From IMG/VR virus record IMGVR_UViG_3300027811_000003, positions 49,290 to 113,289 of that record: a stretch of DNA of 64,000 bases. The stretch is one strand, 5' to 3'. Below are positions 12,011 through 59,027 of this stretch, piece by piece (within the stretch, counting starts at the first letter, position 1; each line of letters starts with the position of its first letter). The notes under the pieces were generated by a model that was not told the DNA's origin, ran no database searches, and saw only the letters and a list, made by a program, of their open reading frames with translations. Position numbers and translations under genes: made by a program. Origin of the DNA: a virus.

Positions 12011-13394
12011 TTTGACTATCTCCGGCCTTAGAATGTGAGAAAAGAGAGTTGTATCTTTCAGCCATTACTTTCTGCCTATTCTGACTGTTGTCCATGAACA
12101 ACGCGACTGGGTCATCTCCTTGTTCTAAAATCTTTACTTTGACTGTAGCTGTCTTCAGAGTGAAAGGATAAACCATGCCGTCCTGTCCCAACCTTGACTT
12201 AGCTACGAGCATTCTGCCAGAGTTGGTTTGCTTGTCTTCAGTCTTCCTAGACACAGTCAAAATGACGTCGCACACTTGCGCTTTGCCGTAACTCTCACCT
12301 ATTTGACTGACAGTGACAATCTCTGATTCAAGACCCGACCTGTTTGTCTGGTCTGCAGTTATTACGACAATGTTGAGCTCCTGAGCAAGCGCTCTCAAGT
12401 CTTCGTACGTTCCTTCCAACTCGAATCTCTTGTCTTTGGTGGCTCCAGATCCGCGAAGCAAGTCTGCGTAATCAACCAACAAAATGTCAGGTTTGAATTC
12501 ACGAGTGGCAGCTAAGCGCTGCAAATAAGCTCTGATAGTCTGAACGCTGGCTTGTTTAGTCGGCCATTCTTTGATGAACAAACGACCTTTAACCGTGTCG
12601 TTGATGACGTTTTGAACTTTGTCCTGATTGTTAGAAACTTCGTTGATCTCGACTCCAGAGTAATATGAATCGAAACGAATGCCGATCTTCCAGTCAGCCA
12701 TTTCCAAAGTGACGTAAACGACGTTGAGACCTTGTTCAAGAGCGGCCGCGCCGCAGTTGACCAAGAACATCGACTTTCCAGCTCCAGTTGGAGCGATAAA
12801 CGTGCTTAAAGTTTGCCTTTCCCAGCCGCCGTTGAATGCCTTGTCAAGCACTTGCCATCCAGTAGAGATTGGATGTCTGACTGACTTCTTTCCTCTCTGA
12901 GACAAGCATTCCTTGTACTCATGTCCGAGGTCTCTAGCAACGCCTTTGTTGAGAGAGTCATTGATGATCGTTCTGATCGAATCGTAGTTTCCGCTCTCCA
13001 TCTGGTCAATGGCTTTGATCAAACCTTCCTTCAGACTTTGCTTTCGTGCAAACTCTAGAAAAGTGTCTTGGATGTATCTCATGTCACCGTTTAAGTGAGT
13101 CACCTTTACTTTTTCGAGATACTCTTTTACCTGTGTTTTGACCAAGTCATCTTCGTCAGAGTTGTTCACAGTTATCGTCTCGAGAACGTCAAGCGACGGA
13201 TAAGTCTTGTATTTCTGTTTGAAATCGAAATACTTCTCAGCGACATGCTGCAAGTATCTCAGCTCGAAAAAATCGGGCTTGATGATGTCAGAAATTTGTT
13301 CTGCGAAAAGCGTGTCTTGTATAAACGCGTGACACGCCTTCTCTTGAAACGTTCTACCAAACTTTGCCAGACTCTCGACAGTTTCTTCGCTCAC
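12003..13394 (-). CDS. Replicative DNA helicase (DnaB/T4 gp41-like)
   Basis: APTGAGKS, YVTLEM, LVDYADLL, QTNR, KSR motifs. Confidence 0.92.
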   Translation of the reverse strand: MSEETVESLAKFGRTFQEKACHAFIQDTLFAEQISDIIKPDFFELRYLQHVAEKYFDFKQKYKTYPSLDVLETITVNNSDEDDLVKTQVKEYLEKVKVTHLNGDMRYIQDTFLEFARKQSLKEGLIKAIDQMESGNYDSIRTIINDSLNKGVARDLGHEYKECLSQRGKKSVRHPISTGWQVLDKAFNGGWERQTLSTFIAPTGAGKSMFLVNCGAAALEQGLNVVYVTLEMADWKIGIRFDSYYSGVEINEVSNNQDKVQNVINDTVKGRLFIKEWPTKQASVQTIRAYLQRLAATREFKPDILLVDYADLLRGSGATKDKRFELEGTYEDLRALAQELNIVVITADQTNRSGLESEIVTVSQIGESYGKAQVCDVILTVSRKTEDKQTNSGRMLVAKSRLGQDGMVYPFTLKTATVKVKILEQGDDPVALFMDNSQNRQKVMAERYNSLFSHSKAGDSQNV

Positions 13395-14134
13395 TCTTTT
13401 TCTCCGAGTTTCTTCATGACATCAACCCACATGGAAGCAGTCCTCTTCTTAAGCTTGTTCTTGTACTTATCTGTGAAATGCTTGTTTCCCGGTATGAGGT
13501 CCAAGACGAGTTTGAAAAAATCATCAGGTGATTTGCCTATTACTTTTAAGGCCTTGTCCTTGGATACCGTTGTTAAATAATCTTCAATTTGCGTAAGGCC
13601 TTGCTGAATTATGGCGTTTGACTCAAGAGGATCATTGAAATAATCAGCCTTCGTTGTCGAACCTGAGCGCTTCTTGTTAGTGAAATCTACAAACGCCTTT
13701 TTAGTTCCAGGAGCTCTTTCGAAGTCCATGTAGTGAACAAATTCGTGATAGAAAAGTCCGTTAGTTCTCTCCATGATCTTGGCGATGTTGCTTCCTTTTT
13801 GCAGCACTTTTCGCCATTCGTCGTCTGACATGTTCGCCGCCTTCGCAGGAACTTCGACAAACAGCACTATCTTCTTTTCTTTCTTGTTGACGTTGGTGAC
13901 AAACTTCGCGTCAGATTTCGATTTTTCGTCTTCAGCTCTCCTGACAAATTCGACAGACAAATCTTTCATAGAATCATCGTCAAGCAGATCTCCGACATTC
14001 ACGACGTTGCTTACTTTGCTTTTGTCTGTAACGAGAGCTTTGGTTATCTTGCCGTGAACGTCTATAGCTCTCTGCCTATATTTCGCGTCATCAGCTCCTT
14101 CGAAAAGCATAAAATATTCATCAAGTATTTTCAT
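13391..14134 (-). CDS. Hypothetical zincin-like protein (HExxH)
   Basis: FYHEFVHYMD and downstream YFNDPLESNA. Confidence 0.55.
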   Translation of the reverse strand: MKILDEYFMLFEGADDAKYRQRAIDVHGKITKALVTDKSKVSNVVNVGDLLDDDSMKDLSVEFVRRAEDEKSKSDAKFVTNVNKKEKKIVLFVEVPAKAANMSDDEWRKVLQKGSNIAKIMERTNGLFYHEFVHYMDFERAPGTKKAFVDFTNKKRSGSTTKADYFNDPLESNAIIQQGLTQIEDYLTTVSKDKALKVIGKSPDDFFKLVLDLIPGNKHFTDKYKNKLKKRTASMWVDVMKKLGEKE

Positions 14135-18456: not shown

Positions 18457-19002
18457 TCACGTCATTTTTGCAAACTTATGATGAGTAAGGCTTATCTTTT
18501 TAAATAGATAGGGATTCTTCTTGCGTAACTTTTTCTTCGCTTTCTCGTCACCGAAGTAGAACACCTCGTTGCCGCACGCCCAGTACTCTCCAACGTCTTT
18601 TCTAGAGTAACCGTCAGACATGAACTTCGCCTTTTTCGTTTTCTCCCTCACCAATCTCTCGTCTGACGTTATGTCTTCAGAGAAGTCGACGTGGTGAGCG
18701 AGTTCGTGAACGAGTATCTTCGCAGCGTTTCTCATGCCTTCTTTCGTCGTAGAGACGCGGATCACGCCGTTCAAGTACTCGCCGACGTCTTTAGTCATGC
18801 GAGTGAACGTCACTTCTCTCAAACCGCTAGAATATGCTATCGGAACCTGCGCGTCTTCCATCTCAGACATCAGTCGCGCGATGAACATGTCCTTGACTTC
18901 ACGAATCATGTTCACTTTTTTGCCAAAAGTCACAAGCGTGAGATGTCCGTTTATCAACTCAAACTTGTCATCGTCGACGAACAAAACGTTCCACGAAAAC
19001 AT
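18457..19002 (-). CDS. Zincin metallopeptidase-like protein
   Basis: LVHELAHHVD...YSRKDVGEYWA (HExxH plus downstream Glu). Confidence 0.65.
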   Translation of the reverse strand: MFSWNVLFVDDDKFELINGHLTLVTFGKKVNMIREVKDMFIARLMSEMEDAQVPIAYSSGLREVTFTRMTKDVGEYLNGVIRVSTTKEGMRNAAKILVHELAHHVDFSEDITSDERLVREKTKKAKFMSDGYSRKDVGEYWACGNEVFYFGDEKAKKKLRKKNPYLFKKISLTHHKFAKMT

Positions 19003-19014
19003 TGATGCCTCTTT

Positions 19015-19773
19015 TCACGCTTTGTTTACGACGTACTTCGCAGTTCCAAGAGAAATTCTGTTGAACGTCAGATACCTATCGATTTCGTTTTTCGTGATCA
19101 TGGCGTATCCATCGTCAGCGTTAACGAGAATCAAGCCAGCGACTTCGTCAAACGCACGTGACGGCTTGGCCAAGTTTTCCCACGCGATCTTTAGTAACAA
19201 CGAAGATTCAGGAGTCAACGTCTCAACGATCTTGTGCAAACCGATCGGGTACTTCTTGCTGCCGTAAAACGCTCCTGCAGAAAATTCTCCGATGAGAAGC
19301 GACAACTTCATCTTTTCGAGCTCGACAAGAACAAAATCGCGCTCGAAGCCAGCGTACGTTTTGCTTTCAGAAAATCTGACGTTCGTGCACGCTTCGACGA
19401 TGAAGCACCTTAGAACATCGGTAAGATGACCTATCGCTTTCTTTCCGTCCCTGCCCGACCTGACTTCGTCAGACTTTCTGCTTATCTTCTTCACTTCCCA
19501 CTTCGTTGACAAAGTCACGCCGTCATCGATCACCAAGTCAAACGTAGAAGAGTATCCACCAGTTTTTTCGTGTTTTGCTCCGAGCTCTGCGATAACCTTT
19601 TCTTCGCCGTCTCCTATCCCGCTCCTGACAGAGCTGAACGGGATCGTTTCAGACTTAGACGAAAACGGGATCCAGTAACGCGGCGGCAAAAGCAAACTTT
19701 CCTTGACTGTCATTTTTCCTCCGGAAGAGATCCAGACCCAAATATTCTCAATCTGCTTAATTGGTTTTGCCAC
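19015..19773 (-). CDS. Putative PD-(D/E)XK nuclease
   Basis: GDGE...STFDLVI...KWEVKK catalytic-like spacing. Confidence 0.5.
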   Translation of the reverse strand: MAKPIKQIENIWVWISSGGKMTVKESLLLPPRYWIPFSSKSETIPFSSVRSGIGDGEEKVIAELGAKHEKTGGYSSTFDLVIDDGVTLSTKWEVKKISRKSDEVRSGRDGKKAIGHLTDVLRCFIVEACTNVRFSESKTYAGFERDFVLVELEKMKLSLLIGEFSAGAFYGSKKYPIGLHKIVETLTPESSLLLKIAWENLAKPSRAFDEVAGLILVNADDGYAMITKNEIDRYLTFNRISLGTAKYVVNKA

Positions 19774-22700
19774 AACTCTTTTGACTTCGGATCGACGCTG
19801 TTTTTAAACGAAGAAACGGCTGAAGATCCTGCGCTTTGACCGACGTGAGCGTTGCCCAATCCAACGAACGGACCGATCTCGTTGATGACGTTCTCTACCA
19901 CTTTCTCCACCAACGCGCTGTTCCTGAGCTTGGCATATACGTCTTCGAAGTCTTCTGAGTTAGACACGAGGTGAGGGTCCATGAAACGCTTGAACGTTTG
20001 TCTGTTGTCGTACACCAAAGCTTTCTTGACTTCAGATCCCTTGACGCCGCCAACGTCTGTGTAGTTCTTCGCGTCGTTGAGCGCCACGACTGAAGCGAGC
20101 GAAGGATCTAAACCGCCGTCTTCTCGATCGAGTCTTTCCAGCTGTTGCTTCAACGTGTCTACGAGATCGATCGGAACGACGAAGTTGACAGCAGTGTCTG
20201 CTTCCACAGTCGAACTCGAGTCGTGAACAAGCTTCGACACGAACTGCGCGAACTCTTGACCTTGATCGCTCTTCTCGTGCAACTCGAACTTCGACATCAC
20301 GTCAGGCAACGACTTCTTTATCATCTCACTTTGCAAATCGAAGTCAAGCGCTGGAGCGACTGAGTCGACGATAAGCACGACTTTGTTGAACTTGGACGCG
20401 AGTCGTCTCAAAACATCTGCGTGACCTCGGTGAAATGGATTAAACGAACCTATAGTAACGGCCACCTTGTCCGCCCTAGCTTCGCAGACGACGCGCCGAA
20501 TGGTTTCGAACACATTCTTGTTCAATTCCATGGACTCAAGACGCTGCGGTAACGCACCGGGCGACTTGGTGTCTCCACCCAGGTCGACAAGCACGAGGTC
20601 TTTCCCACGTTTCATGAAGTTGTCAACGTGGACGTCTCTGTAAACTATGCTGTTGCTTTTCAGCTCTTTCATCAACTCGTCGAAGCCCAAGCTCTCTAGA
20701 TCTGCAAAATGCGTTTGTGCTTCTGCTATTTCTTCTCCTTCGACGTTTGACATCGCCTTCGCCTTTATGGCTTCCCAGCTTTGCGACCATATGTTGTCGG
20801 TGATCTTGAACTCTTTCGAATACGTTTTGTTCAGTATGAACGATATTCCCTTTGACAACTTGAACAGCTCTTGGTCTGGAAGAGGAGCAAGCTTTTCCTC
20901 GACGACGCAGTACCAATCGACTTTTTGCTGAGCTTGTTTTGGCAAGTAAAACACGTTAAACACTTTGACTATGTGTTTGAGTCTCTTGCCCTTCACGAAG
21001 TTGCTAGTCTTCGCGTCAGACAAGTCAGTGGTTAACTTCACCGCGATTCCAGGGCCAGATTCAAACACGACTCCGCTCACGCCGTGTCCCAACATCTTTC
21101 CTATCTTGATGTGTTGTCTCAGAAGTTGTTGGCCGTAATTCGTCAAGACTGGATGGACGTCGAGACGTTTTGGAATCGCAGCTTCGTCGACTCCTTTGAT
21201 AGTTCCACCTCTGACAGATGAACCGCCGAGGTCAGACAGCACAAACGTGTCACCACGTTTCATGATGTTGCCACCGTGCCAGTCGTTGTACCTTATTCCG
21301 AGAGACCTGAGATCGTTCTGAATGTCGTTGAAGTTGAACTTCTGAAGTACGTCTAAATCGTCTTCAGCATACGCTGAATTAAATTCGCCAGCCTCGCCCT
21401 CAGTGCTGTTTGGTCCTAGTTCAGAACCAGTCAGCGGAGTCAGCTTCTCCATCACGATTCCGTAAAGATCGTAGTGCTGTCCGCCGCGATACACGAACTT
21501 AAACACGTCGAACACTTTTACCATGCGTTTGAGGTTCTTGCTCTTGATTTTCAGCGCAAGCAACGCGTCAGTCTCGTCCTCTGTGACCTTTAGAACTTTG
21601 CCGCCGCCGATGTCGAACACGATCGCCCTTGTACCCTCGCCGATTTCTTTGCCGACAGTTATGCCACGTTTCTTGAGAAGTTCTTTATCTGCTTCCAACG
21701 CGTTCTTGATGTCGTCAGCGAGAACGTATTCTACCTCTTCTGCGAGATTCGTGATGACGTTCTCCATGACGCGTTCGATCACGTCGGGTTCAGGTCCTTC
21801 AGAGTCAGAAACTCCCAAGTCTATCGCCACGAACTCGTTTCCGCGTTTCATAACGTTGCCAGAGCTGAGATCCATCCAGTCTATGTGATTTTCTCTCAGC
21901 TCGTCTAGCATCTCGAACACGCTGAACTTCGACAACGTCCTCATAGCCAACTTTGCTTCTTCTTCTTTTCCAGGGTGTGCTTGCTCCCAAGCTGAAATTT
22001 GATTTTGCACGGCCTGTTCGTCGAGCGACATCCAACGGAACTCCAAGTTTTCGCCGCACCAGCCCAAAGCGTCGTCCAAATCACGTTTGTCAGACTCAGA
22101 CATGTCTGTGACAAGTTCTTGCACGACTCCGTAATAGTGTTGATCGTGTTTGCCTTGAGCTTCTGCTGGTTGCTTGAACTTGAACACGTCGAAGATCTTC
22201 GCCACGTGTCTGAGCGACTTGCCCTTGATCGCGTTGCTAGAACGAGCTTCGGTGTCGTCGACAGTGATCTTCAGGACTTTTCCGTTTCTCAGCTTGAACG
22301 CGATGCCACGGCCGCCGTGGCCCATCTCAGATGCTACGTCGTACCCGTGTTTCTTCAAAATGGCGTCGTTTTGCGCCAAGACGTTGCCTATGCCAACAGA
22401 ATGCTTTGACTTGCCAGCTTCTCTCAAGACGCCTTCTATGATCCAGTTGTCCAACGTCGTCTCTATGGGTTCTAGACGATGAACTGCGACGTCCAATCCT
22501 TTCATCATTGGCAACGTGTCCCAGGATTTCACGTACTTCAAAGTCACATGAGGAGAATAACCGTGTCTTTCGTTCGCTTCGACTCCTATCTCCTTAAGAC
22601 GCATCGTAAGCTCAGCTTGCATGTCAGACAACGTCGGACAATCTACTGAAGCGTAGATGACGTCGGTGCCTCCTGTCTCATCAGCGCTGAACCTTCCTAT

Positions 22701-23234
22701 GCCACCGAGCTTCACTTTGAATCCAAGAGCGCCGTTTTCGAACGTGCGTTCAGTGTATTTCGCGAGAAGCTCGTTCGCTATCTCGACGACTTTCTGCTTT
22801 AATTCGGCTGGAACTGACTTCAGATACGCCACAGTGACGTGCAAGTCTACGACTTCTTCTCCGTCTGGCAACGAAATCTTTTGGCCGACGTCAGCGGGTA
22901 TCTTCAAAGCGAAAAAGAACTTTTCCTTTTCTGGAGCGATCAAATCTACCAGGTTGGCTTTGGCTAAAACGTCGAGCGTCGGCGAAGGGCCAACAACGTC
23001 TCTGTTGGAATCTCTCCTGACAACGCCGATGGACGAAGCGATTGACGAAACGAGATCGTCGACAAATGACTCCATGACGCCAGGAAATCCAGCGTTGTTG
23101 GGATCTTGTGGCTCAAACTCTTCGATGTTGTTCTTCATGTCGTCGGGAAGCGGGTACCCTGGCTTTCCCTTGCCTCCACGAAACCCCATTCCGGCGCCTG
23201 AGCCGTTGCCCGATCTAACGTTGAAGCTAGCCAT
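19710..23234 (-). CDS. Multidomain polyprotein: 2H phosphoesterase + 3 protein-kinase-like domains + HxGH nucleotidyltransferase
   Basis: HVTV/HVTL pair; three GxG..K..DxxxxN..DLG units; GSFNPFHRGH. Confidence 0.85.
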   Translation of the reverse strand: MASFNVRSGNGSGAGMGFRGGKGKPGYPLPDDMKNNIEEFEPQDPNNAGFPGVMESFVDDLVSSIASSIGVVRRDSNRDVVGPSPTLDVLAKANLVDLIAPEKEKFFFALKIPADVGQKISLPDGEEVVDLHVTVAYLKSVPAELKQKVVEIANELLAKYTERTFENGALGFKVKLGGIGRFSADETGGTDVIYASVDCPTLSDMQAELTMRLKEIGVEANERHGYSPHVTLKYVKSWDTLPMMKGLDVAVHRLEPIETTLDNWIIEGVLREAGKSKHSVGIGNVLAQNDAILKKHGYDVASEMGHGGRGIAFKLRNGKVLKITVDDTEARSSNAIKGKSLRHVAKIFDVFKFKQPAEAQGKHDQHYYGVVQELVTDMSESDKRDLDDALGWCGENLEFRWMSLDEQAVQNQISAWEQAHPGKEEEAKLAMRTLSKFSVFEMLDELRENHIDWMDLSSGNVMKRGNEFVAIDLGVSDSEGPEPDVIERVMENVITNLAEEVEYVLADDIKNALEADKELLKKRGITVGKEIGEGTRAIVFDIGGGKVLKVTEDETDALLALKIKSKNLKRMVKVFDVFKFVYRGGQHYDLYGIVMEKLTPLTGSELGPNSTEGEAGEFNSAYAEDDLDVLQKFNFNDIQNDLRSLGIRYNDWHGGNIMKRGDTFVLSDLGGSSVRGGTIKGVDEAAIPKRLDVHPVLTNYGQQLLRQHIKIGKMLGHGVSGVVFESGPGIAVKLTTDLSDAKTSNFVKGKRLKHIVKVFNVFYLPKQAQQKVDWYCVVEEKLAPLPDQELFKLSKGISFILNKTYSKEFKITDNIWSQSWEAIKAKAMSNVEGEEIAEAQTHFADLESLGFDELMKELKSNSIVYRDVHVDNFMKRGKDLVLVDLGGDTKSPGALPQRLESMELNKNVFETIRRVVCEARADKVAVTIGSFNPFHRGHADVLRRLASKFNKVVLIVDSVAPALDFDLQSEMIKKSLPDVMSKFELHEKSDQGQEFAQFVSKLVHDSSSTVEADTAVNFVVPIDLVDTLKQQLERLDREDGGLDPSLASVVALNDAKNYTDVGGVKGSEVKKALVYDNRQTFKRFMDPHLVSNSEDFEDVYAKLRNSALVEKVVENVINEIGPFVGLGNAHVGQSAGSSAVSSFKNSVDPKSKELWQNQLSRLRIFGSGSLPEEK

Positions 23235-23235
23235 G

Positions 23236-23586
23236 TCAAGACCCGCTTATTATGCCGAGCAGCGCCTTGATACCGACGCCGCTGCCGCCGAGAGCTCCGC
23301 CTGCGAGCAATATCTTCGTTGCCAGCTTGAAGTAAAACTTCGCACGTTCGTTGTCAATCTCTAACGGTTTCACCTTGTCGTTGACTTCTTTCAGACTTTC
23401 TTCTAAGAGATTCGTTCTTTTCACGTGAACTTCCAAAACGTTTTCCTGCTTCACAAGAGTGCGGTCGATCGCGTCCAACCTGTCTTCGACTTTGTCGAAC
23501 CTATTCACGATCCTGTTGTCCATGTTTTCTATGCGTTGGGACAAGTTAGAAAGCAACAACGTGATATCTGAATTTGTATTCGACAT
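23236..23586 (-). CDS. Coiled-coil protein with C-terminal TM segment (XhlA-like)
   Basis: Heptad region then hydrophobic Gly-rich C-terminus. Confidence 0.5.
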   Translation of the reverse strand: MSNTNSDITLLLSNLSQRIENMDNRIVNRFDKVEDRLDAIDRTLVKQENVLEVHVKRTNLLEESLKEVNDKVKPLEIDNERAKFYFKLATKILLAGGALGGSGVGIKALLGIISGS

Positions 23587-23593
23587 ATAGTTT

Positions 23594-24130
23594 TTACCTC
23601 GTCACACGAAAAACAGTAGACATGGCTGGAATTTTCGATTCAGAGACTGACAGCATCGACTTTTCCCAGCCGTCAGGTAGTCGCGGAATTCGTTGCGCGT
23701 CTTTCGGATTCGTAATCTCGACTGTGTAGTCAGGCTTGAAATGAAGCAAGACACCCTTGTAGTCACCTACCAAGCCAGTTTCAGAAAACTCCTTGAACAA
23801 AAGTTTCTTTTCAGACTCTGGTATCGGATACTTCTCGATGCGCAAATCGATAGCTTCGAAGTGTTTGCCCGCAGCGCTGAAGTCGGCTTCAAGATGCGGC
23901 ATCTCTTCTATCGGATCGTCGTTGAACTCTTGGACGTCAAATCCCAAGTGCTTCGTTTGGTTGTCGTCTTCTCCGAATCCGTCTTCGACATTTTCGTAAA
24001 AGTCTTTTTCTTCTTTCTTGACGTGATAAGGAAGCTTGGCTCCCTTTTTCGTGTGCTTTTCCCAACGCTTAGCCATCTTGGGATCGTGGATGTGCATCCA
24101 CGCACGTTGTGCTTTGCTCACGAATGGCAT
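23594..24130 (-). CDS. Hypothetical virion-associated protein
   Basis: N-terminal MPFVSKAQRAWM...AKRWEKHT...LP motif seen in phage head-region proteins (recall). Confidence 0.55.
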   Translation of the reverse strand: MPFVSKAQRAWMHIHDPKMAKRWEKHTKKGAKLPYHVKKEEKDFYENVEDGFGEDDNQTKHLGFDVQEFNDDPIEEMPHLEADFSAAGKHFEAIDLRIEKYPIPESEKKLLFKEFSETGLVGDYKGVLLHFKPDYTVEITNPKDAQRIPRLPDGWEKSMLSVSESKIPAMSTVFRVTR

Positions 24131-24735: not shown

Positions 24736-25326
24736 CTACGTTCTCTCCTGCTCACACGACCAGCGGTCTGCCCAGTGAAGCAGCAAAGCTAGTTTCGACT
24801 CTTTCATCCCGTAAATTTTGTTGGCTTCTACGTATTGACCGTCTGACAACTTGAGAGCTAGGTATTCGTCTGAGTTGAGTGACACTCCAAATCTCTGAAA
24901 AATGAAAAGCGTTCTATCTTCAGTGGAATGAATCTGACATTTTTTGTTTATCTCGTACAAAAAACCTCTCTTCCTACCATACTCGTTTTCGTTGTACACG
25001 TAATACGGTTCGACACCGTCTCCCGCTTTTCCCAAGTCATGAAACAATCCGACAAAAGCGAGAGTTTGATCATCATATTCTGAACCCACGAGAGACGCTG
25101 AAATTTTCTTCAGGTTCTTAACGACGTTAAGAGAATGAAGCAGCAATCCTCCGGCAAAGCAATTGTGAAAATCTTCTCTCGACGACGCCGGCGCCAAGAA
25201 AAATTGCTCTTGCATGTTGTCCATCAGTAACTTAACGTCTTCTTGTCTTTTTTCAGACATCGAACCGATCAACGCATTGAAAATTCTTATGTTCTTTTCA
25301 AGATCTTGTTCACTCAACGTCTTCAT
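24736..25326 (-). CDS. HD-domain phosphohydrolase
   Basis: APAS..H..GGLLLHSLNV, FHDLGK, LLHWAD. Confidence 0.88.
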   Translation of the reverse strand: MKTLSEQDLEKNIRIFNALIGSMSEKRQEDVKLLMDNMQEQFFLAPASSREDFHNCFAGGLLLHSLNVVKNLKKISASLVGSEYDDQTLAFVGLFHDLGKAGDGVEPYYVYNENEYGRKRGFLYEINKKCQIHSTEDRTLFIFQRFGVSLNSDEYLALKLSDGQYVEANKIYGMKESKLALLLHWADRWSCEQERT

Positions 25327-26650
25327 AATTTTCTCCGATCTTCATCTTTGTCACGAATCCAGTAGTTTTTTCTATTTCTTTCTTTATATCCGAAGCATGT
25401 CGAATTTCTTCTGGATGCAGATCGAAAACGACTTCATCGTACACTGTGAAAATCATCTTGCTTTTGATGTCTCTAACGATTTCGTCGGCTCGAGACAGCG
25501 CTTTTCCGAACACGAAGCTGCTAAACGTTTGTGCGTAAAGTCCTATCACTTTTCCAGGGCTGAAATCATCGTCTATTTTTATTCTGTGATAGCCTGGCGT
25601 GTCTAAAAACCCGTTTTTCTTTGACTCTGCAACCAATTCATTTCTGAAACGAATTATGGGTTCAAACAATTTGTCAAGCTTAATTAGCATTTCCTTAAGC
25701 TCAAAATGTGACAGGCCAGTAGACGCGTTTAGCGTGTCCAACGCTCCTCCATAGATGTGAGCGTAAGTGATTTTCTTTATGTCGTCTCTGAGCTTCGGAG
25801 TCACTTCTCCGAACAGTGAAGCAGTTCTGGCGTGAAAATCCAGCACGCCTGCGTAAAATCTCGTCAAGTCGCTGTCGTTGACAGCTTCTACGAGACATCT
25901 GTAGTCTATGGCGTTGAAGTCGAGAGTACATATCTTGCCGTTTTCAAACCTGCTAGTCAACACGCTCCTGCAAAATCCGTGTGGAATTGACATGCATTTG
26001 AAACCACTTTCGACTCTTATTCTCCACGTCTTAGATCCTACTGGACTCATCGCAGACTTTACAAATCCGTTTTTTTCTTGACTCTTGATGCTTCTCAAAA
26101 AGTTCGTTTCATGCATGTTTAGAGACGAATCGTTTAAACCGACAGATATCTTTTCGACATCGACTTTTATCTTCGCGTCTTCCATTCGTGAAATCACTTT
26201 GAACAACGGCCAAATTCTGTTTTTGTAGTGCTTTATGTCGTGTTCAGTTACAGATCTCAAGATCTCGCGCATCGCTTCAGCCCTAAGGCTAGCACGCTTC
26301 GACAACATTCCGTTAGGCAAAAGTTCTTCCAAACAGATAGACTCGAGATCTACATTGGCGTTTAGAAGAGCGTTAGCGTGCGCAGAAAATTTCTGTTCGT
26401 GTTTCAAAAATTCGTCCTTGCACGCCAACGCGCTTTTCTCGACGAACGAAGACAGACTGCAGTCTATGTCTAGCAACATCTTCAAGTCGAAAACTATTTC
26501 GTTGCTAACAAGTTCTACGGCTTTTCTCGCGTCAAAACACACCACGAAATCGTCAGCGTCTAGTTTGACTTGTCTGAGACTTTCGTCAAACGAAAACAAT
26601 TCTATCTTGCCAGTTTTGTCTCTGAAACCGTCGATGAACGTCAGACTCAT
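25310..26650 (-). CDS. Short, divergent family A DNA polymerase
   Basis: Motif A DFNAIDYR, DFH, motif B RDDIKKITYAHIYG, motif C VYDE. Confidence 0.8.
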   Translation of the reverse strand: MSLTFIDGFRDKTGKIELFSFDESLRQVKLDADDFVVCFDARKAVELVSNEIVFDLKMLLDIDCSLSSFVEKSALACKDEFLKHEQKFSAHANALLNANVDLESICLEELLPNGMLSKRASLRAEAMREILRSVTEHDIKHYKNRIWPLFKVISRMEDAKIKVDVEKISVGLNDSSLNMHETNFLRSIKSQEKNGFVKSAMSPVGSKTWRIRVESGFKCMSIPHGFCRSVLTSRFENGKICTLDFNAIDYRCLVEAVNDSDLTRFYAGVLDFHARTASLFGEVTPKLRDDIKKITYAHIYGGALDTLNASTGLSHFELKEMLIKLDKLFEPIIRFRNELVAESKKNGFLDTPGYHRIKIDDDFSPGKVIGLYAQTFSSFVFGKALSRADEIVRDIKSKMIFTVYDEVVFDLHPEEIRHASDIKKEIEKTTGFVTKMKIGENYEDVE

Positions 26651-26681: not shown

Positions 26682-28487
26682 TTAAAAATCTTTCCTGCTC
26701 TTTGTTCCAAGAGGGTCAGTGCAACTGGAGAACACTTTGTAATTCGTTACAAAGCTGCCACGTTGGATGACGTCTTCTTTCTCGTAAAGCGTGAACGGAC
26801 CGTCCCACCTGCTTATACCGAAGTCGAGCCATATCAAACCAAACGTGTCTAACACGAAGTTTCCTATCGTGATTATCTGTCCTTGAATAGTGGGAGAAAA
26901 AATCTGCTGAACAGCCGGCGCTCTGTCTTCTTTCCAAGCTGCGTCAGGAGATGTAACTTTTTCTGACCTGTTCACACTCTTGTCACCGAAGTAACGTCTC
27001 ATGAAGATGCCAGCCATCTGCTCGTCTTGTATAACTTCAAACGACGTGTCTTGCACGAATGAGTTTCCTTTGACTAAAGAAACGAACGGAACTCCCTTGT
27101 CGTTCACTGCTTTTTTTATGTCGTTCCTGCTCACTATCTCACTTGGTAGCTTCTGCGCATCGTCGGGAGAAAACTTGACGAATTCTGATTTCGTGTCAAA
27201 AATGTAGTAGTAAACTTCCATCTTGCCGCTTCTGTTTCTCCTAGACACACTCTTCATGATCAGCTCGGGTATAGATCTATTCGAATTGTTGTCTTCTCCT
27301 TTCCTGTCCCAGACGTATTCTTTCGAAAACAATCTCAAAAAAGGTTCGATGAAGTTGTACACAGTCAGTCTAGAGCCAGCCTTCATGAGATCTCTGAACA
27401 CTTTTTCGACGTCGTCTAGCGGAAAAGTGAAGTCAGATATCGGTTTGTTAGACACGTCTGCACCGGCAGAATATTTTGGAGCTGGCTTCCCCGCTCTGCC
27501 GTTCAAGCACCCGACGAACATCTCCTTGAAATCAAATCCTAAGCTCGTGAACGAGTCTTTGATCGCGTCTGCGAATATCACGTCTATGACCATCCCGAAC
27601 GGAATGTCGACAACGCCTTTCTTCTTTGACAACTTTCCAGAAGAAGACACTTCGTCGTGAAACTTGTTCAGCAGCGCTTTGACGGGCGAACCTCCGTCAG
27701 CGTACGGGTCTATTTCTACTAGTTTCCCAGCTTTCGTTATAGTCGTCGTAGCGTTGGGATCGCGTACCAAGAAAGCTTGTCTCAATCCGCTTTCTCCCAG
27801 CTCGTACGCTTGAATCGCAAAACGTATCTGCGAATCTGTCTGCAAGTTGAACTTGTAACTCGTGACGTAAAATCTTACTTGTTCTCTTCCTTGGACTGCG
27901 ATTCCTTTTGACCTGTCTACGAAGCCTTCGCCGTTAAGCAACCCGTTGCTCACTCCCGTGCTTGCAGACCAACCATACTCCAAAGCAAAAGCTTGTCCTG
28001 GAGTGATGAGTGACGACCACGAGTCTTCGTCGCCGACATGCGACCCGTCAGATCTTATGTGTTGGTCGAACACTACGTCAGGTCTGTGGACGACAAACGT
28101 GATCTCAAGCGTCCTGTACAAGATGATGCCTCTTGGATTCGCCACTTTCACGCTTATCTTTTCCAACGAAACTGGGGGCCTGTCTCTGAATCTCTCGTTG
28201 GCGCTCGACAACGACCTACCGAATTTAGGAGGCTCTACCCAAGTCATGTTCAACGGATGTCTTGGCGACCCGTCAGAGTTTGCGTGCATCGCCTTCCCAG
28301 TCGACGGGTCTATCTCCCACATGGTGACGTAAGGTACAGCTTGCGCTTTTTCAGCTGGAGTTATTCCTTCGAGGAGTTCAATCGCTTTCTGAGAGCACGC
28401 GTAAAAGGGTTTGCCGCTCGTGTCACCGTCGTTAGAAGGCGGCGCAGAGTTAGACAGCACTGCGAACTTTTGCGGTTTGTAGCTCAT
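26682..28487 (-). CDS. Putative baseplate hub protein
   Basis: Position after the LysM/wedge gene; LEYGW motif; C-terminal beta-rich hub-like segment. Confidence 0.55.
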   Translation of the reverse strand: MSYKPQKFAVLSNSAPPSNDGDTSGKPFYACSQKAIELLEGITPAEKAQAVPYVTMWEIDPSTGKAMHANSDGSPRHPLNMTWVEPPKFGRSLSSANERFRDRPPVSLEKISVKVANPRGIILYRTLEITFVVHRPDVVFDQHIRSDGSHVGDEDSWSSLITPGQAFALEYGWSASTGVSNGLLNGEGFVDRSKGIAVQGREQVRFYVTSYKFNLQTDSQIRFAIQAYELGESGLRQAFLVRDPNATTTITKAGKLVEIDPYADGGSPVKALLNKFHDEVSSSGKLSKKKGVVDIPFGMVIDVIFADAIKDSFTSLGFDFKEMFVGCLNGRAGKPAPKYSAGADVSNKPISDFTFPLDDVEKVFRDLMKAGSRLTVYNFIEPFLRLFSKEYVWDRKGEDNNSNRSIPELIMKSVSRRNRSGKMEVYYYIFDTKSEFVKFSPDDAQKLPSEIVSRNDIKKAVNDKGVPFVSLVKGNSFVQDTSFEVIQDEQMAGIFMRRYFGDKSVNRSEKVTSPDAAWKEDRAPAVQQIFSPTIQGQIITIGNFVLDTFGLIWLDFGISRWDGPFTLYEKEDVIQRGSFVTNYKVFSSCTDPLGTKSRKDF

Positions 28488-49244: not shown

Positions 49245-49439
49245 TCACTGTTTTCCATTCATTCTGACAGCTTTGTTGTGTTTGTTCCTTTTCTTGATGG
49301 ACGGCTTTTCGAAGTTCGCGCGGTCCATGAGCTCCTGCATGATCCCGCTGTTCTTGAACTTCTTTGTGAAAAGTCTTATCGACTTCTCGACGTCTTTCGA
49401 AACGTTCACTACCAAAGAATCTCTGTTATCTTCCTTCAC
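49245..49439 (-). CDS. rpsU: Ribosomal protein bS21
   Basis: DVEKSIRLFTKKFKNSGIMQELMDRANFEKPSIKKR matches the bS21 pattern (xExALRxFKK...G...E...R..YEKPS). Confidence 0.85.
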   Translation of the reverse strand: MKEDNRDSLVVNVSKDVEKSIRLFTKKFKNSGIMQELMDRANFEKPSIKKRNKHNKAVRMNGKQ

Positions 49440-51959: not shown

Positions 51960-52562
51960 TCACTTTCCTCTCAGAACTGCGTTAAGCGCTCTGTAGATTC
52001 TGTCCGTCTTCGAAAATATCCTGTTCTCATCTATCTGGTATTTCTTGCTCTCTCCAAACAAATAAGCTCCCGGTGTGCTAGGTTCAGACACTATGTCAAA
52101 CGAAATCAGCTGAAAGTCAGACTGAACTTCGTCTATGCCTTCGTTAGTCTTCTCTGTGGAGCCGACTCCTCTGCTCGAAATTCCGATCATCACGCCGTCG
52201 TGAAGCAAATTTTCGAGAATCTTGCCCATCGGAGTACTGAGAACTTGAACTTTTCCGTGTACCGTGTCTCCGTCCCACCACATCTCACGAACTATGTGAG
52301 AAGCTTTCTGAAGAGAAACCGAGCTGCTCTCGGGATGATCGAGTTCACCCACAGCTCTACTTTCTCTCACTGCCTTTTGGTAATTCTCTACTTCTCTGTC
52401 AAGTATCTCACGTGGATAGACTCGTTTGTTCTGGTTTTTGATTCCTGCCCTCTGTAAAACGCCGCTTAGAATGATCTTCCCGTCGTTCTTCGCCTGCGAT
52501 TCCTTGATCAAAGCGGGAGTGTAATCGAGCTTGATCCATTCTCTGAGAAGTGATTTAGCCAT
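51960..52562 (-). CDS. Prohead protease (T4 gp21-like)
   Basis: NQNKRVYP, GELDHP, SH, GISSRGVGS, FDIVSEPSTPGA. Confidence 0.95.
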   Translation of the reverse strand: MAKSLLREWIKLDYTPALIKESQAKNDGKIILSGVLQRAGIKNQNKRVYPREILDREVENYQKAVRESRAVGELDHPESSSVSLQKASHIVREMWWDGDTVHGKVQVLSTPMGKILENLLHDGVMIGISSRGVGSTEKTNEGIDEVQSDFQLISFDIVSEPSTPGAYLFGESKKYQIDENRIFSKTDRIYRALNAVLRGK

Positions 52563-54809: not shown

Positions 54810-57800
54810 TCAGACTTTCTCCAAGTCGTTCAACATCGATTCAGCTTCTTTCAGCGCGTCTTCGATGTCTTCTATCTCCGTGTCTTCGGAAAAAGGTCTA
54901 GTTACAAGCCTTCGCGACGCTCTCGTGTCATACGGATCAGACGCAGTCTGCTTATCTGTACCAAAAGCAAGTTCGTATTGATCTTCGCCAGTAGAAAACA
55001 GGTTCTTACCTTTGTCGACTGCTATGGTGGAATCGTTTCCCTCGCTACCCTTGTTCCTCTTCTCGACGATGCTTCTCTTGAACAACTTCTTCTTTTTTTC
55101 GTTTATCACTGGTCTGTGAATAACTTTTCCTTCGGGCTTCACTGGCTCTTCGGCTGGTGCCTCGGGCTTTTCTTCACCAGTCTCACCTCCAAGTGTGGTT
55201 GGAAGTTCCTCTTCGCCTGGCAGATTTTCTTCTCCTGATGGTTCTTCTCCGGGAGCTTGCATGTTCTCTAAAGTCAGATCTTCAAGTTTGTCAAACTTCT
55301 TTCCTTCTCTGACTTTCTCTATCTCGTCGTCAGACATGCTGAAGATCGTCCTGTAAATCGTTTCTCTGTCGAGGACTCCCTCAGTGGCTTGAGCAGCTAT
55401 CTCGAATCTCTGCCTCCACAATTCGAGTTTCTGTTGCTCTGCCACAGTAGAAGCAGTAGCAAGTTTGAGCTCGAAGTCAGCGAGAGCGTCTCCATCGAAT
55501 CCCATCAAAAACAAATGGATAATCGCTATTTTGCTCAGCTCTGCTACGACTATCTTCTGCACTCGTTCTACGCTGCGAGCGAACCTAACGTCCTGCTGCG
55601 CGAGAGTAGCCTTTGAACCTATGTCGCCCTCGTACCCCAAATACGCTTTTGGAACCTGAAGCGCTGCAAACATCTTGTTCTGTATGTATTGTACGTCGTC
55701 TATGTCTCCGGTAAACTGACCACCGGGAAGAGTCTCGATCTTGGACGACTTGTCTCCACGAATGGGAATAAAGTAATCTTCGTCAACAGAGTTCTTTAAT
55801 AAAATAAATGACTTACAAATTTCATGTGAACCGTTTCCGATAACACTGAAGTTATGTCTATCTTCTTCATTGAATGGACCGACAACAGTCATACAATAAA
55901 CATCGTCAGAAACATTCTCAAGAATTTCAACCTTAGCTACCTGATGATTAAGCGGAGCAGAATGCGTTAACATGTAATTTTTGAAAGATGAAAATCCTAC
56001 GTGCTCAGGACGATCTTCGTTGTCCCATTTTCTCTTATACACATCCCGTGCTACCATAACATGAGTAGATGTTTGTGTGCCATCTGGTTCGATGATTCTT
56101 TCGTATCCTTTGTTGTTCAGATCGCGATATAACGACAAAAGGCTGTCACCACTTCGCAGTTCATCTGCTCTCTTGCTGCTGCCGTCTCTCATGACGAACG
56201 GATGTTCTGGAGCTGTGTCGACATACGAACCGTCGTCAAGCCACACTCTGTGAAGTTTGTCACACGTGTAATTCTTGCCACACCACTTCACTTTGCCAGG
56301 GACCAATCGTTTCGTTTCGTCCTGAATCGAATAAACCCAATTCTCTTTTCCTGCTTCGTATTCTTCAGCGAGTTGTTTGATCGTCAAGTTTCTTCCGTCA
56401 AGCAACGGAACACAAGTGTTCGATCTTATCGGAAGCGGATTATAGCGAAGGTCAACTCTCCCGCTCGTTGGGTCGACTATCTGATTCCTACGCAGCTTGT
56501 TCTTGATCTTCTCCATGAACTGATCCGCGTCTTTCGGAGCAGTGTTACCGACGTCTATGTAAAACACGCGTCGTTCAGGCGATCTGACGATCCTGTACAC
56601 CATCATCGCGTCTTCGATCAATATCAATTGCCGCCATATGCGTCGAGCTGGTTCGATGATACTCTGACCGTACGGCAAGAAGTTGTCATTACCGAGCAAC
56701 CTGAAGTGTATGACCTGCCAATTTTGTAGTATCCTATTTCCTTGCGTCGTCCACCTGAAACGAACAGCGAAAGGATCGTTCTTGTCAAACCCTTCTTCGC
56801 GTTCTATCTCGTTGATCGGTATGGGCAACAGATTCAATATACCGGTAGATTCGCTAGCGTCTACAAACAAGAGAAAATCGCCGTATTTTACCAAGTTGCG
56901 GACCCAACTCCACAAATTGAATTCGATGTTGAGAACATCGAAAAAGAGAGTCTCAAGAATCTGTTTGATCTCTGCGTTCTTGCTCACAACTTCGAGCATG
57001 TGATTCTTTTCGTTGTGCGTCGTCGTCTCGTCAGACCATATGTTTAATGCCGATGCAATCTCGGGTGTATTATGAGATATGACGCTATCTAAACAAAAAT
57101 TCTTAAAGCCTTCTACTGACAAATCATAAAGATCTACATTTCCAAAATCTTCTATGCGATCGATTGCAACTCCACCATCTGCAATTAGCATCTCTTTGTT
57201 CGAATCATATGCGAATACAAATTGTTCCCAACTTGAAAATCCCCAGCAGGAAATAGTAAATTCTATTTCTTCTATGGTAGTTTTCAGATGCTCGCAAATT
57301 TTGAATAGTTCGAATCCAATATCTTCAGCAAGGCAAAGCAAAAGTGCAAATTTATGGCGTTGAAGATCTGAAAACTCATGAGGGGCATCAGATTCTTCAG
57401 CATCTTGACATTTTGGTGACATCAAAACATCATCTTTTTTCAGACAACATGCTTTTCTGTACGAACCATCGTTAAGCATCAATCTATGTTCACTGGATAC
57501 TATGATATTTTTGCCGTTGCAAAGAATGATGTTGAGAGCATTGTCGTTTCTTGTAAAATGTGGATTTGAAGCTTTGGTTTTAACAAATTTTCTAGTTGAG
57601 TGATCCCACGAAATGATGTTAAACGATTTATTTTCTCTTTTAGACAATTCTTCTATAGTCACAAATGTATTTTCATCGGGTAAAAAGACCAATGATTGTC
57701 CATGGATGCAGAATTCCATCTCAGAATAATCTGAATATCGAGAGTTGTGAACTATTATCGTGTCTGTAGCAAAATTCTCGTAACCGTCAACAGTTAAGTC

Positions 57801-59027
57801 ACCGACTTCTATGATTCCATTGCGTTCTACTGAGACAACTTTATGATTACGAACTTCTCTATATTGTTTTGTTTTATGAAGACGATCTTCTGCTGAACGA
57901 TGCTTTCCTTTCCAGTAAGATGCGAATGAAGAACGATCTGGTTTTGGAAGTTCTATATTGAATTTTTGTTTAACGAATTCGTTCCATGAATTTCCGACAT
58001 CGAATCCTTTTCCTCGTATTCTGCGCATCAAAGCTTGCATGCCACAATTCAAATCAGAAAGAACTAGCTTCACATCGTGATTGTTTCTGATCGACGAATT
58101 ACAAATTGCGTCAAATGTCACGTCAGAACGAGTCTTAAATTTTGTGTTGCTTTCAGCGATGATAGCTCTTCTTGAGCCATCGTCATTGTCCCAAGCACGT
58201 TGAATGCTTTCACATGTCTTTTTTCTTATGTCAGGGTTATTCCACTGTTCTTTTGCTTGTTTACCGTGTTCTGAGAGATGCTTCTTAGCATCAATTATTT
58301 CAAGATTACTTGGATCATTATTTTCAGGATTATGATCTTTGTGATGCACGTGTTCGATACTCTTCTGCACGTCTCTGCCGTTAAACCATTCTGTGATAAG
58401 TCTATGCTCTGGTTCCCATCCTTTCCAAGATTTCTGTTTTTCCATAGTGTAAATCGACGAGTAACCACTGAATTTCTTTCCGTCTTCTGCCACGCCGTTG
58501 AATTGACGACGATAAAATGGCATCATCGATTGACCAGGTTCCAACTTTTCAGCGTCTAGATAAGTTCCATCACGAAGCATGCATGGATGATCGGGAGTAC
58601 AAACAAGAGAAGATCCGTCATTGAATGTAACTTTGACAGTTTCCTTGAATCCAGAAGAACGAGGATGATGTGCCCACGCAGGAACGATCTTCTTCTTTTT
58701 GTGATCGTAAGCGTAAACAAGAAATTTTTCACCATTGGGATATTTCTTTGCCGCCTCGTACAAAGAAATATATCTTTCAACGCCTGGAACAGCTATGCCT
58801 TTGTAATCAAAGGACAAACACATCCTCTCGTATTGTCCATAGCTCGCGAGAGCGTGCACGTACAAATGCGACAACTCTTTCTTGTATGCGCTTGCCGTTC
58901 CTTGCGGTTCTTGGAACTTTTCGCCTGACGCTATCTTGTGCCTGACGACTGGACCGCTACGGAAAAGTCTAGTGAGACGCTTCCACACCGATTCTCTGCT
59001 TCTTCTGTCGATCAACTCGTCTGTCAT
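54810..59027 (-). CDS. Portal protein (gp20-like) with three inteins; spliced length about 618 aa
   Basis: PEIASAL, KYGD, LIEDAMMVYRIVRSPERRVFYIDVGN, EDYFIP, IETLPGG, LQVPK, DVRFAR. Confidence 0.95.
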   Translation of the reverse strand: MTDELIDRRSRESVWKRLTRLFRSGPVVRHKIASGEKFQEPQGTASAYKKELSHLYVHALASYGQYERMCLSFDYKGIAVPGVERYISLYEAAKKYPNGEKFLVYAYDHKKKKIVPAWAHHPRSSGFKETVKVTFNDGSSLVCTPDHPCMLRDGTYLDAEKLEPGQSMMPFYRRQFNGVAEDGKKFSGYSSIYTMEKQKSWKGWEPEHRLITEWFNGRDVQKSIEHVHHKDHNPENNDPSNLEIIDAKKHLSEHGKQAKEQWNNPDIRKKTCESIQRAWDNDDGSRRAIIAESNTKFKTRSDVTFDAICNSSIRNNHDVKLVLSDLNCGMQALMRRIRGKGFDVGNSWNEFVKQKFNIELPKPDRSSFASYWKGKHRSAEDRLHKTKQYREVRNHKVVSVERNGIIEVGDLTVDGYENFATDTIIVHNSRYSDYSEMEFCIHGQSLVFLPDENTFVTIEELSKRENKSFNIISWDHSTRKFVKTKASNPHFTRNDNALNIILCNGKNIIVSSEHRLMLNDGSYRKACCLKKDDVLMSPKCQDAEESDAPHEFSDLQRHKFALLLCLAEDIGFELFKICEHLKTTIEEIEFTISCWGFSSWEQFVFAYDSNKEMLIADGGVAIDRIEDFGNVDLYDLSVEGFKNFCLDSVISHNTPEIASALNIWSDETTTHNEKNHMLEVVSKNAEIKQILETLFFDVLNIEFNLWSWVRNLVKYGDFLLFVDASESTGILNLLPIPINEIEREEGFDKNDPFAVRFRWTTQGNRILQNWQVIHFRLLGNDNFLPYGQSIIEPARRIWRQLILIEDAMMVYRIVRSPERRVFYIDVGNTAPKDADQFMEKIKNKLRRNQIVDPTSGRVDLRYNPLPIRSNTCVPLLDGRNLTIKQLAEEYEAGKENWVYSIQDETKRLVPGKVKWCGKNYTCDKLHRVWLDDGSYVDTAPEHPFVMRDGSSKRADELRSGDSLLSLYRDLNNKGYERIIEPDGTQTSTHVMVARDVYKRKWDNEDRPEHVGFSSFKNYMLTHSAPLNHQVAKVEILENVSDDVYCMTVVGPFNEEDRHNFSVIGNGSHEICKSFILLKNSVDEDYFIPIRGDKSSKIETLPGGQFTGDIDDVQYIQNKMFAALQVPKAYLGYEGDIGSKATLAQQDVRFARSVERVQKIVVAELSKIAIIHLFLMGFDGDALADFELKLATASTVAEQQKLELWRQRFEIAAQATEGVLDRETIYRTIFSMSDDEIEKVREGKKFDKLEDLTLENMQAPGEEPSGEENLPGEEELPTTLGGETGEEKPEAPAEEPVKPEGKVIHRPVINEKKKKLFKRSIVEKRNKGSEGNDSTIAVDKGKNLFSTGEDQYELAFGTDKQTASDPYDTRASRRLVTRPFSEDTEIEDIEDALKEAESMLNDLEKV
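55791..56432 (-). mobile_element. Portal intein 3 (214 aa), Pro1, class-3-like
   Basis: RYNPL|PIRSNT...DTAPEHPF...VYCMTV...RHNF...LLKN|SVDEDYF. Confidence 0.85.
57069..57710 (-). mobile_element. Portal intein 2 (214 aa), no recognisable intact endonuclease
   Basis: EMEF|CIHGQS...SSEHR...LYDLSVEGFKNF...ISHN|TPEI. Confidence 0.9.
57744..58820 (-). mobile_element. Portal intein 1 (359 aa) with HNH endonuclease
   Basis: YERM|CLSFD...CTPDHP...HVHHKDHNPENNDPSNL...GDLTVDGYENF...IVHN|SRY. Confidence 0.92.

Follow-up and report, generated by a model that had tools for sequence, protein, structure and literature searches.

In this work, we analysed a 64,000-nucleotide stretch of viral DNA (the window; positions 49,290 to 113,289 of IMG/VR record IMGVR_UViG_3300027811_000003) and focused on one long gene, P0001, which lies on the minus strand at 19710..23234 and encodes a candidate polyvalent multi-enzyme protein of 1174 amino acids (aa). 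An earlier sequence-only reading, which gave no strand, had proposed that this open reading frame (ORF) joins a 2H phosphoesterase, three kinases and an HxGH nucleotidyltransferase, and this composition was confirmed by the ORF list with its translation, Pfam, BLASTP and AlphaFold2 (AF2) modelling. The single phage protein with several enzyme domains is genuine, as judged from the matches of each domain and the intact 2H and kinase motifs. The phage itself is a distant relative of T4, with gp23-, gp21-, gp20- and gp17-like genes at 46-61 kb of the window and a capsid protein 35-50% identical to those of Rhodothermus phage RM378, Flavobacterium 'immuto' phages and uncultured phages.

The region at 18900-23400 of the window recurs in soil and sediment metagenome contigs from three studies. 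Over the P0001 stretch, a soil contig was identical, a sediment contig from another study differed at 2 bases with 0 indels, and the third study contributed identical fragments, while a fourth soil study contained only short fragments of the region, one of them ~90% alike; among the public runs listed with it, none was an RNA data set. Since identical or nearly identical, indel-free contigs came from three studies, the reading frame is not an assembly artefact, and the phage is an environmental one from soil or sediment. Megablast of the gene against deposited phages gave 0 matches, and at the protein level deposited phages contain relatives of the 2H part only.

The first enzyme of the protein is the 2H phosphoesterase domain (aa ~103-266; 22437..22928, minus strand), which was recognised by Pfam, PHROG and a PDB sequence match. 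PF13563 matched aa 128-262 with 34.9 bits against a cut-off of 27, PF02834 (LigT_PEase) reached 23.9 bits against 23.3, and the PHROG family 'RNA ligase' (2H) matched at E 3e-11. With two H-x-T/S motifs, HVTV at aa 132-135 and HVTL at aa 229-232, and profile matches above threshold, the domain belongs to the 2H superfamily as a LigT-like member, which bears out the 2H call previously made at aa ~105-265. The likeness to Acb1 that had also been drawn was not recovered: phmmer against all PDB sequences at E<=10 listed no Acb1, only 5h7e, PH0099, ASCC1 and an unrelated dynein light chain, and the nearest solved sequence was the LigT-type RNA 2',3'-cyclic phosphodiesterase 5h7e (E 0.007).

Behind the 2H domain follow three kinase repeats on the same minus strand, K1 (aa 279-490; 21765..22400), K2 (aa 506-687; 21174..21719) and K3 (aa 690-903; 20526..21167). 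Each keeps a GxGxxG loop, the beta3 Lys, a DxxxxN catalytic loop and DLG, in the form GHGGRG, VLK, DLSSGN and DLG in K1 (placed by AF2 and Foldseek), GEGTRA, VLK, DWHGGN and DLG in K2, and GHGVSG, AVK, DVHVDN and DLG in K3 (placed by BLASTP and alignment). No Pfam model detects K1-K3 in P0001; BLASTP relates the window repeats to one another over aa 282-488, 509-685 and 693-901 at ~30% identity (K1-K2 E 2e-28, K1-K3 1e-24, K2-K3 8e-26). In an alignment of 17 repeats, drawn from the window and from six related loci, G27, G29, K44, D177, N182, D194 and G196 were invariant (17/17) and the Glu of the first helix and the hinge Glu nearly so. The three paralogous kinase domains with intact motifs are thereby upheld. 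The repeats also carry a helical insert between the hinge and the catalytic loop, shortest in K2. The consensus of this loop, D-x-H-x-G-N, matched APH and ABC1/UbiB of Pfam weakly, with single sub-threshold matches to Pkinase and Kinase-PolyVal, and NleH1 and YopO were weak profile matches to the repeat.

The fold was then taken from a model of K1 built on the 17-repeat alignment (AF2; predicted local distance difference test, pLDDT, 90.3; predicted template modelling score, pTM, 0.86). Foldseek against the PDB returned at least 500 kinase chains at E<=1e-3, headed by CK1, CK2, CMGC kinases and APH(2''), of which CK1, CK2 and APH(2'') stood at E ~1e-6. The VIA structural search (all against representatives) gave Z 8-9.9 to BRAF, ULK4, PINK1, Wee1, PKR, RIO1/2 and TkArkI; the last of these, a protein of 216 residues that we take to be a tRNA 2'-kinase, matched at Z 8.4. 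These Z scores did not separate protein kinases from atypical kinases. All structural alignments of K1 covered model residues 2-201 and stopped at residue ~201, a few residues past DLG, so the minimal C-lobe ending after DLG that had been read from the letters is correct. The repeats thus show the catalytic motifs and the bilobal fold of the protein kinase-like superfamily with a C-lobe truncated past DLG. They resemble NleH/OspG, RIO and T7 gp0.7-type kinases as small protein kinase-like folds with a reduced C-lobe, but differ from them in the helical insert, in standing up to five or six in tandem, and in a sequence relation at the superfamily level only.

Each window repeat has its best outside relative in a different place, K1 in the repeat at aa 574 of P0002 (42%), K2 in that at aa 775 of P0003 (41%) and K3 in a repeat of locus L002 (39%). 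Each window repeat shares 39-42% identity (140-169 bits) with its nearest counterpart in another phage but 30-33% (84-93 bits) with its paralogues in P0001, which makes K1-K3 old, separately kept lineages rather than products of a recent tandem duplication. When 1.84 billion representatives were scanned with HMMER, 3,328 metagenomic repeat clusters (50% identity) appeared at E<=1e-3 and 248 at E<=1e-30, among them stand-alone kinase proteins of 217-320 aa, whereas tblastn of K1 at E<=0.01 gave 0 matches in 50,697 deposited phage genomes. In a viral structure library, the nearest models to K1 were small uncharacterised proteins of uncultured marine phages, with T7-type kinases ranking lower.

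The last enzyme domain is a divergent adenylyltransferase of the HIGH (HxGH) superfamily (aa 913-1107; 19914..20498, minus strand), assigned by PF01467, a family profile and AF2 with Foldseek. PF01467 matched aa 927-957 (28.2 bits against a cut-off of 21), the HxGH motif is FHRGH at aa 934-938 within GSFNPFHRGH, and the AF2 model (pLDDT 77) matched PPAT, NaMNAT and NadM at E 2e-6. The HxGH motif in a Rossmann-like fold places the domain in this superfamily, and the nucleotidyltransferase called from aa ~922 onwards stands. A profile built from seven domains of the family described below ranked NadM and archaeal NMNAT first (2qjt 1.7e-10, 1f9a 6e-10) and PPATs next; the match to NMNATs spans GRFQPFHxGH and NPFS..R, and a typical family domain matches phage NadM/NadR genes at 25-31% identity. 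Of 31 positions with a conservation of at least 85% across the family, the window copy retains 22 and has lost 9, with R930->S, Q932->N, R968->Q and R1070->K, no NPF, and VKGSEVK in place of the ISGTxxR motif. The family thus shares with NadM/archaeal NMNAT (2qjt, 1f9a) and phage NadM/NadR the HxGH Rossmann-like fold and the consensus GRFQPFHxGH ... NPFS..R; unlike them, it lacks a Nudix or P-loop kinase as partner, a search for NadV gave none, and the window copy lacks NPF..R. Neither NadV (PF04095) nor Tpt1 (PF01885) was found in the 113-kb record of the window phage, which is 55% complete, or in three related fragments, all of these being 22-55% complete. The proposal that this enzyme restores NAD is accordingly a fair lead for the NMNAT-like family but a weak one for the window copy, which has lost three conserved Arg and NPF and has no NadV in its 113-kb record.

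We assembled the family of P0001 from 20 near-length relatives and ten viral-contig loci, and delimited the domains with custom hidden Markov models (HMMs). Its members are syntenic, domain-shuffling proteins of 1,000-2,500 aa with a common plan, in which an Rnl1-like ligase or a 2H domain is followed by one to five kinases, the nucleotidyltransferase and a further kinase, between a Gly/Pro-rich N-terminus (G-x-PGYPVP) and a conserved tail (AGSSxWS...DP..LWQ). One relative, P0015 (2054 aa), carries both ligase and 2H. The Rnl1-like domain has the KxDG motif "EKVDGS", EGxV and KxVDK, and matches Pfam RNA_lig_T4_1 at E down to 7e-7. For instance, at L002:8519-9922 (plus strand) and in relatives including P0002, P0003 and P0005 there is a ~460-aa covalent nucleotidyltransferase/ligase (EKVDGS, EGLVF, TKLVDK). 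In most relatives this ~460-aa domain, weakly recognised as T4 Rnl1-like, sits where the window protein has its 2H domain. Domain scans of 27 and 21 members added a polyvalent-type InPase in 8/27 (E 1e-37), SLT in two (4e-27, 8e-27), ART-PolyVal in one (6e-5) and a zincin in one (P0015). A ParB-like segment in P0010 and an ART-like segment in P0019, called by eye, were confirmed by neither Pfam nor PDB sequence searches and were dropped.

The modules of this family are autonomous, since kinases exist as stand-alone proteins and since a separate, coupled ORF of the window is a fused module in relatives. This 232-aa ORF (19015..19713, minus strand) begins with an ATG that overlaps the TGA of P0001 (ATGA at 19713-19710), has GGAGGA 4 nt upstream, and shares homology with the C-terminal module that is fused in P0076 (aa 2039-2310, E 2e-16) and with those of P0061, P0065, P0042 and P0055. 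Judged from its sequence, it is a detached, translationally coupled module of the large protein. It is possibly restriction-endonuclease-like, as the Atlas language-model look-up gave a weak pointer to R.HinP1I/SmaI-like proteins (0.89-0.91). On the other side of P0001, the N-terminus of a 178-aa ORF at 23594-24130 (minus strand; MPFVSKAQRAWMHIH...) shares 55% identity with residues 1-40 of P0015, so an upstream neighbour here is a fused module elsewhere. Because P0015 fuses this N-terminus together with a zincin like the one encoded at 13391-14134, neighbours and modules evidently exchange with each other.

P0001 is a reduced member of the family, with 2H instead of the ligase and no kinase past the nucleotidyltransferase. 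Its Gly/Pro-rich N-terminal segment (aa 1-60; 23055..23234, minus strand) carries the motif G-x-PGYP(V/L)P, found in many relatives by custom HMM. At the other end, aa 1108-1174 (19713..19913, minus strand), composed of a linker helix (LVEKV...) and the 'AGSSxxS ... DP..ELWQNQL' tail, align with the end-of-kinase linker and tail of relatives. Since linker helix and tail remain, we consider that this suggests loss of the kinase that normally follows the nucleotidyltransferase. Such losses raise the question of whether a once larger polyvalent gene is decaying in the window phage and has ceased to work as a whole; the missing ligase and post-nucleotidyltransferase kinase, with the linker and tail of that kinase still kept, the 9/31 family-conserved positions lost from the nucleotidyltransferase, and the one module split off as its own ORF would fit decay. 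However, contigs of three studies agree exactly or almost exactly over the open 3.5-kb frame, every catalytic residue of the 2H and kinase domains is intact, the split-off ORF has its own Shine-Dalgarno sequence and ATG within a coupled ATGA, and further relatives also end straight after the tail. We therefore regard decay as very improbable.

The reading that we prefer, at a probability of about 0.65, is that P0001 is a polyvalent-type multi-enzyme phage effector, made of autonomous catalytic modules that are reshuffled at a fixed locus in a clade of distant T4-like phages. It builds on features observed here, namely the domains with their intact catalytic motifs and folds, the family, its synteny and the shuffling of its modules. 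In such an effector, the 2H domain would act on RNA ends or on nucleotide signals, hydrolysing their 2',3'-cyclic-phosphate or 2'-5' linkages, and the three minimal kinases would phosphorylate host proteins with ATP or, less likely, RNA ends or small molecules. The third type of module is a divergent NadM-like adenylyltransferase; the nuclease-like module has its own, translationally coupled ORF, with a zincin peptidase gene next to it. During early infection, the modules may target the host or its defences, for take-over or counter-defence. Whether they would arrive by capsid packaging and injection or by ordinary expression with the replication genes is about evenly balanced.

The class to which P0001 fits is that of the polyvalent proteins, which Iyer et al. 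(2017, PMC5512222) describe as large phage proteins with 2H, InPase, ART, peptidoglycan hydrolases, peptidases and a C-lobe-less kinase, and propose to be packaged and injected. As in those proteins, many unrelated effector domains share one phage polypeptide and are shuffled fast, and the 2H domain, the polyvalent-type InPase, ART-PolyVal, SLT, a zincin and a C-lobe-less kinase are common to both. In contrast to the polyvalent proteins, the core here consists of tandem kinases, a NadM-like HIGH nucleotidyltransferase and an Rnl1-like ligase or 2H domain; a term search of Iyer et al. 2017 (PMC5512222) gave no mention of a HIGH nucleotidyltransferase. The authors also state that their 2H domains never accompany RNA ligases (PMC5512222), whereas P0015 has both. 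The sequence-only reading knew of no described protein with this architecture. The exact architecture was indeed not found described, neither in the portions used of two later surveys from the same group nor by a literature search, which yielded no further candidate papers, and the same holds for the kinase family; the class, however, is known (PMC5512222). The nearest described kinase is PF18762 Kinase-PolyVal, likewise a minimal kinase of multidomain phage proteins that keeps the ATP-binding and phosphotransfer residues without a C-lobe. It is described mainly from Verrucomicrobia/Chlamydia and Bacteroidetes (pro)phages in the same paper (PMC5512222); the present family comes from uncultured T4-like phages, and none of its repeats reaches the threshold.

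Several results weigh against the preferred reading. PF18762 matched 0/17 repeats at E<=1, and the best relatives scored 17.1 and 16.7 bits against the cut-off of 27. The weak APH-, ABC1- and UbiB-like matches of the catalytic loop make a non-protein substrate possible. Relatives carry the NadM/archaeal NMNAT motifs but the window copy does not, and as the entire 113-kb record is devoid of LIG-type domains, a ligase-based reading of the family is not transferable to P0001. While several unrelated effector domains do share one polypeptide, the packaging linkage of polyvalent proteins to MuF, portal or head genes was not seen: no MuF or portal family was present among the 27 and 21 members scanned, and the gene lies in a replication/recombination block of T4-like phages, away from the head genes. 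On the other hand, the closest deposited-phage relatives of the 2H domain, in Arthrobacter phages, adjoin portal and MuF genes, a capsid link for related 2H domains that we count in favour of this reading.

The position of the gene is conserved, with the same neighbourhood in 10/10 related loci. Upstream, in the six loci reaching that far, lie a split DNA polymerase, an HD hydrolase and small ORFs; downstream, in the nine loci reaching that far, follow an SSB-like protein and then UvsX, preceded in 8/9 by a 181-aa protein. P0001 starts 1 nt past the preceding ORF. A single copy of the T4 late-promoter motif TATAAATA, as expected by chance, is present in the window, on the plus strand opposite to P0001, and the intergenic regions inspected contained no usable promoter motif. 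A late gene, as had been assumed, is therefore unsupported, given the place between DNA polymerase and SSB/UvsX and the lack of a T4-type late promoter.

The same assumption belonged to a model of late synthesis, in which the protein enters the prohead, is split by a gp21-type protease into five separate enzymes and reaches the host together with the injected DNA. We consider this model unlikely, although the window does hold a protease at 51960-52562 that is 34% identical to T4 gp21 (E 7e-31), and its gp23-like capsid protein has I-K-E near the position where T4 gp23 is cut after L-T-E65. T4 gp23 loses 65 residues, Alt and internal proteins of T4 are packaged and trimmed (PMC9958956), and related proteases cleave after Glu (PMC5694885). 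With a gp21-like protease and the capsid I-K-E, cutting after Glu as in T4 is plausible for the window phage. The SLT domain in two relatives would also be explained most easily by passage through the cell envelope. In P0001 itself, the hydrophobic-x-Glu sites previously listed in the linkers are all present; however, they occur at chance frequency and several lie inside folded domains. L/I-x-E was observed 14 times against 12.6 expected from composition, with 7 inside domains, hydrophobic-x-E 32 times against 27.5, and two of the five junctions, the K2-K3 linker and the one between K3 and the nucleotidyltransferase, offer only V-x-E. Enrichment of (L/I)-x-E at exposed linkers, or confinement to them, was thus not seen.

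A conserved P-x-[VI]-L-E closes every kinase repeat in the family alignment and would speak for processing. The idea that it is pure linker was rejected, as the AF2 model of K1 places it in a beta-bridge and then at the start of the linker helix with pLDDT ~90, where it looks like a modelled part of the kinase fold. With sites at chance frequency and the conserved motif modelled as folded, the main argument for cleavage by a gp21-type protease falls away. Further points against prohead cutting are the location in the replication block, 1 nt behind the preceding ORF and with no promoter of its own seen, and the N- and C-terminal motifs of P0001, which occur in no other ORF of the 113-kb record. 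In T4, gp21 takes short N-terminal peptides off IPI-III and Alt and degrades gp22, gp67 and gp68 to small peptides, and it is not reported to split a polyprotein into separate enzymes (PMC9958956). With T4 Alt and the internal proteins, the window phage shares a lineage with gp20/21/23-type head genes and the concept of an enzyme injected with the DNA; unlike them, P0001 shows no likeness to a capsid-targeting sequence and is at most a putative cargo.

The 181-aa protein downstream, P0022 (18457..19002, minus strand), is a HExxH zincin (HELAHH) which opens another route, in which the polyprotein is processed, or otherwise served, by this peptidase instead of the head protease. In L002-L008 and L010, such a zincin comes directly after the large gene, P0015 includes a fused zincin domain, and Iyer et al. 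(PMC5512222) propose peptidases as releasing agents in polyvalent proteins. The protein bears a weak likeness to anthrax-LF/M34 and M91 effector peptidases and to Pro-Pro endopeptidase, but its Pfam match to ATLF lies just below the cut-off (E 8e-6; 26.1 bits against 27.4), those to M91 and M90 are weak, and that to Pro-Pro endopeptidase in the PDB has E 0.45. The window linkers also lack the Pro-Pro of many relatives, the zincin of P0015 is not clearly homologous to P0022 (E 0.04) but is to the product of 13391-14134, and P0022 could equally be a separate effector. Processing by this zincin is thus highly doubtful. The gene at 13391-14134 (minus strand) encodes 247 aa with HEFVHYMDF and a downstream NDPLESNA, and is a second zincin of the replication block; its homology to the zincin-like domain in the N-terminal part of P0015 has E 1e-11.

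A different way to take the replication-block position, between the split DNA polymerase/HD hydrolase and SSB/UvsX, is that P0001 is an unpackaged cytoplasmic multi-enzyme for upkeep of RNA and nucleotide pools under host attack. In that case, the 2H domain would heal ends, the kinases would act on 5'-OH RNA or nucleosides, and the NMNAT-like domain would supply NAD, in a logic that may be compared with Trl1 or with Pnkp and Rnl1. Like Trl1 (ligase-kinase-2H cyclic phosphodiesterase) and T4 Pnkp/Rnl1, the family joins a covalent ligase, kinases and 2H; most relatives have the Rnl1-like KxDG ligase in place of 2H, the nucleotidyltransferase family is nearest to NadM NMNATs and phage NadM/NadR, TkArkI is among the structural matches of K1, and the catalytic loop resembles the APH/ABC1 type. 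Unlike in Trl1/Pnkp, the kinases are protein-kinase-like and not P-loop enzymes, and ligase and 2H mostly substitute for each other and seldom co-occur. The window copy has no ligase, so that P0001 does not present the Trl1-type set of KxDG ligase, kinase and cyclic phosphodiesterase; searches for a P-loop polynucleotide kinase, a 3'-phosphatase and Tpt1 gave none; ArkI is not set apart from ordinary protein kinases by the Z scores; and the SLT and ART-PolyVal domains of relatives are unfit for a repair hub. We hold this alternative to be possible, with the odds tilted against it.

Elements of these routes can be combined. The family might be capsid cargo that is loaded via G-x-PGYPVP, cut at the repeat-end Glu by the head protease or the zincin, and injected as free enzymes, with the kinases phosphorylating RNA ends or NAD-pathway metabolites alongside ligase/2H and NMNAT as an RNA/NAD repair kit. 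We put this forward as a speculation that is quite unlikely to hold in full.

The first gain is the definition of a large unstudied minimal-kinase family, with ~3,300 clusters at 50% identity and 0 in deposited phage genomes. Uncultured T4-like phages of soil, sediment and other environments use it as tandem repeats, and a single hypervariable locus links it with modules of the NMNAT-like, RNA-ligase-like and 2H types. Should these modules serve in counter-defence, the locus would be a natural catalogue of anti-defence activities and of the defences met; if the protein is injected, it would extend the paradigm of T4 Alt and the internal proteins to enzyme cargo on the megadalton scale. The stand-alone kinases of ~220 aa are easy first targets for biochemistry.

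Other genes of the window also deserve mention. A 196-aa HD-domain phosphohydrolase is encoded at 24736-25326 (minus strand), and its place three to four genes ahead of the polyvalent gene is conserved in the related loci that reach there. The DNA polymerase is apparently split between 25310-26650 and 26682-28487 (both minus strand), noted as 601 aa and 446 aa; PHROG polymerase matches were found for the second only, and both ORFs are kept in the same order across related loci. The portal gene at 54810-59027 (minus strand) is a 1405-aa ORF in which an HNH endonuclease segment (aa ~186-297) precedes the gp20-like parts (aa 653-868 and 1092-1293), and this HNH segment is possibly a fusion or an intein-like insertion.

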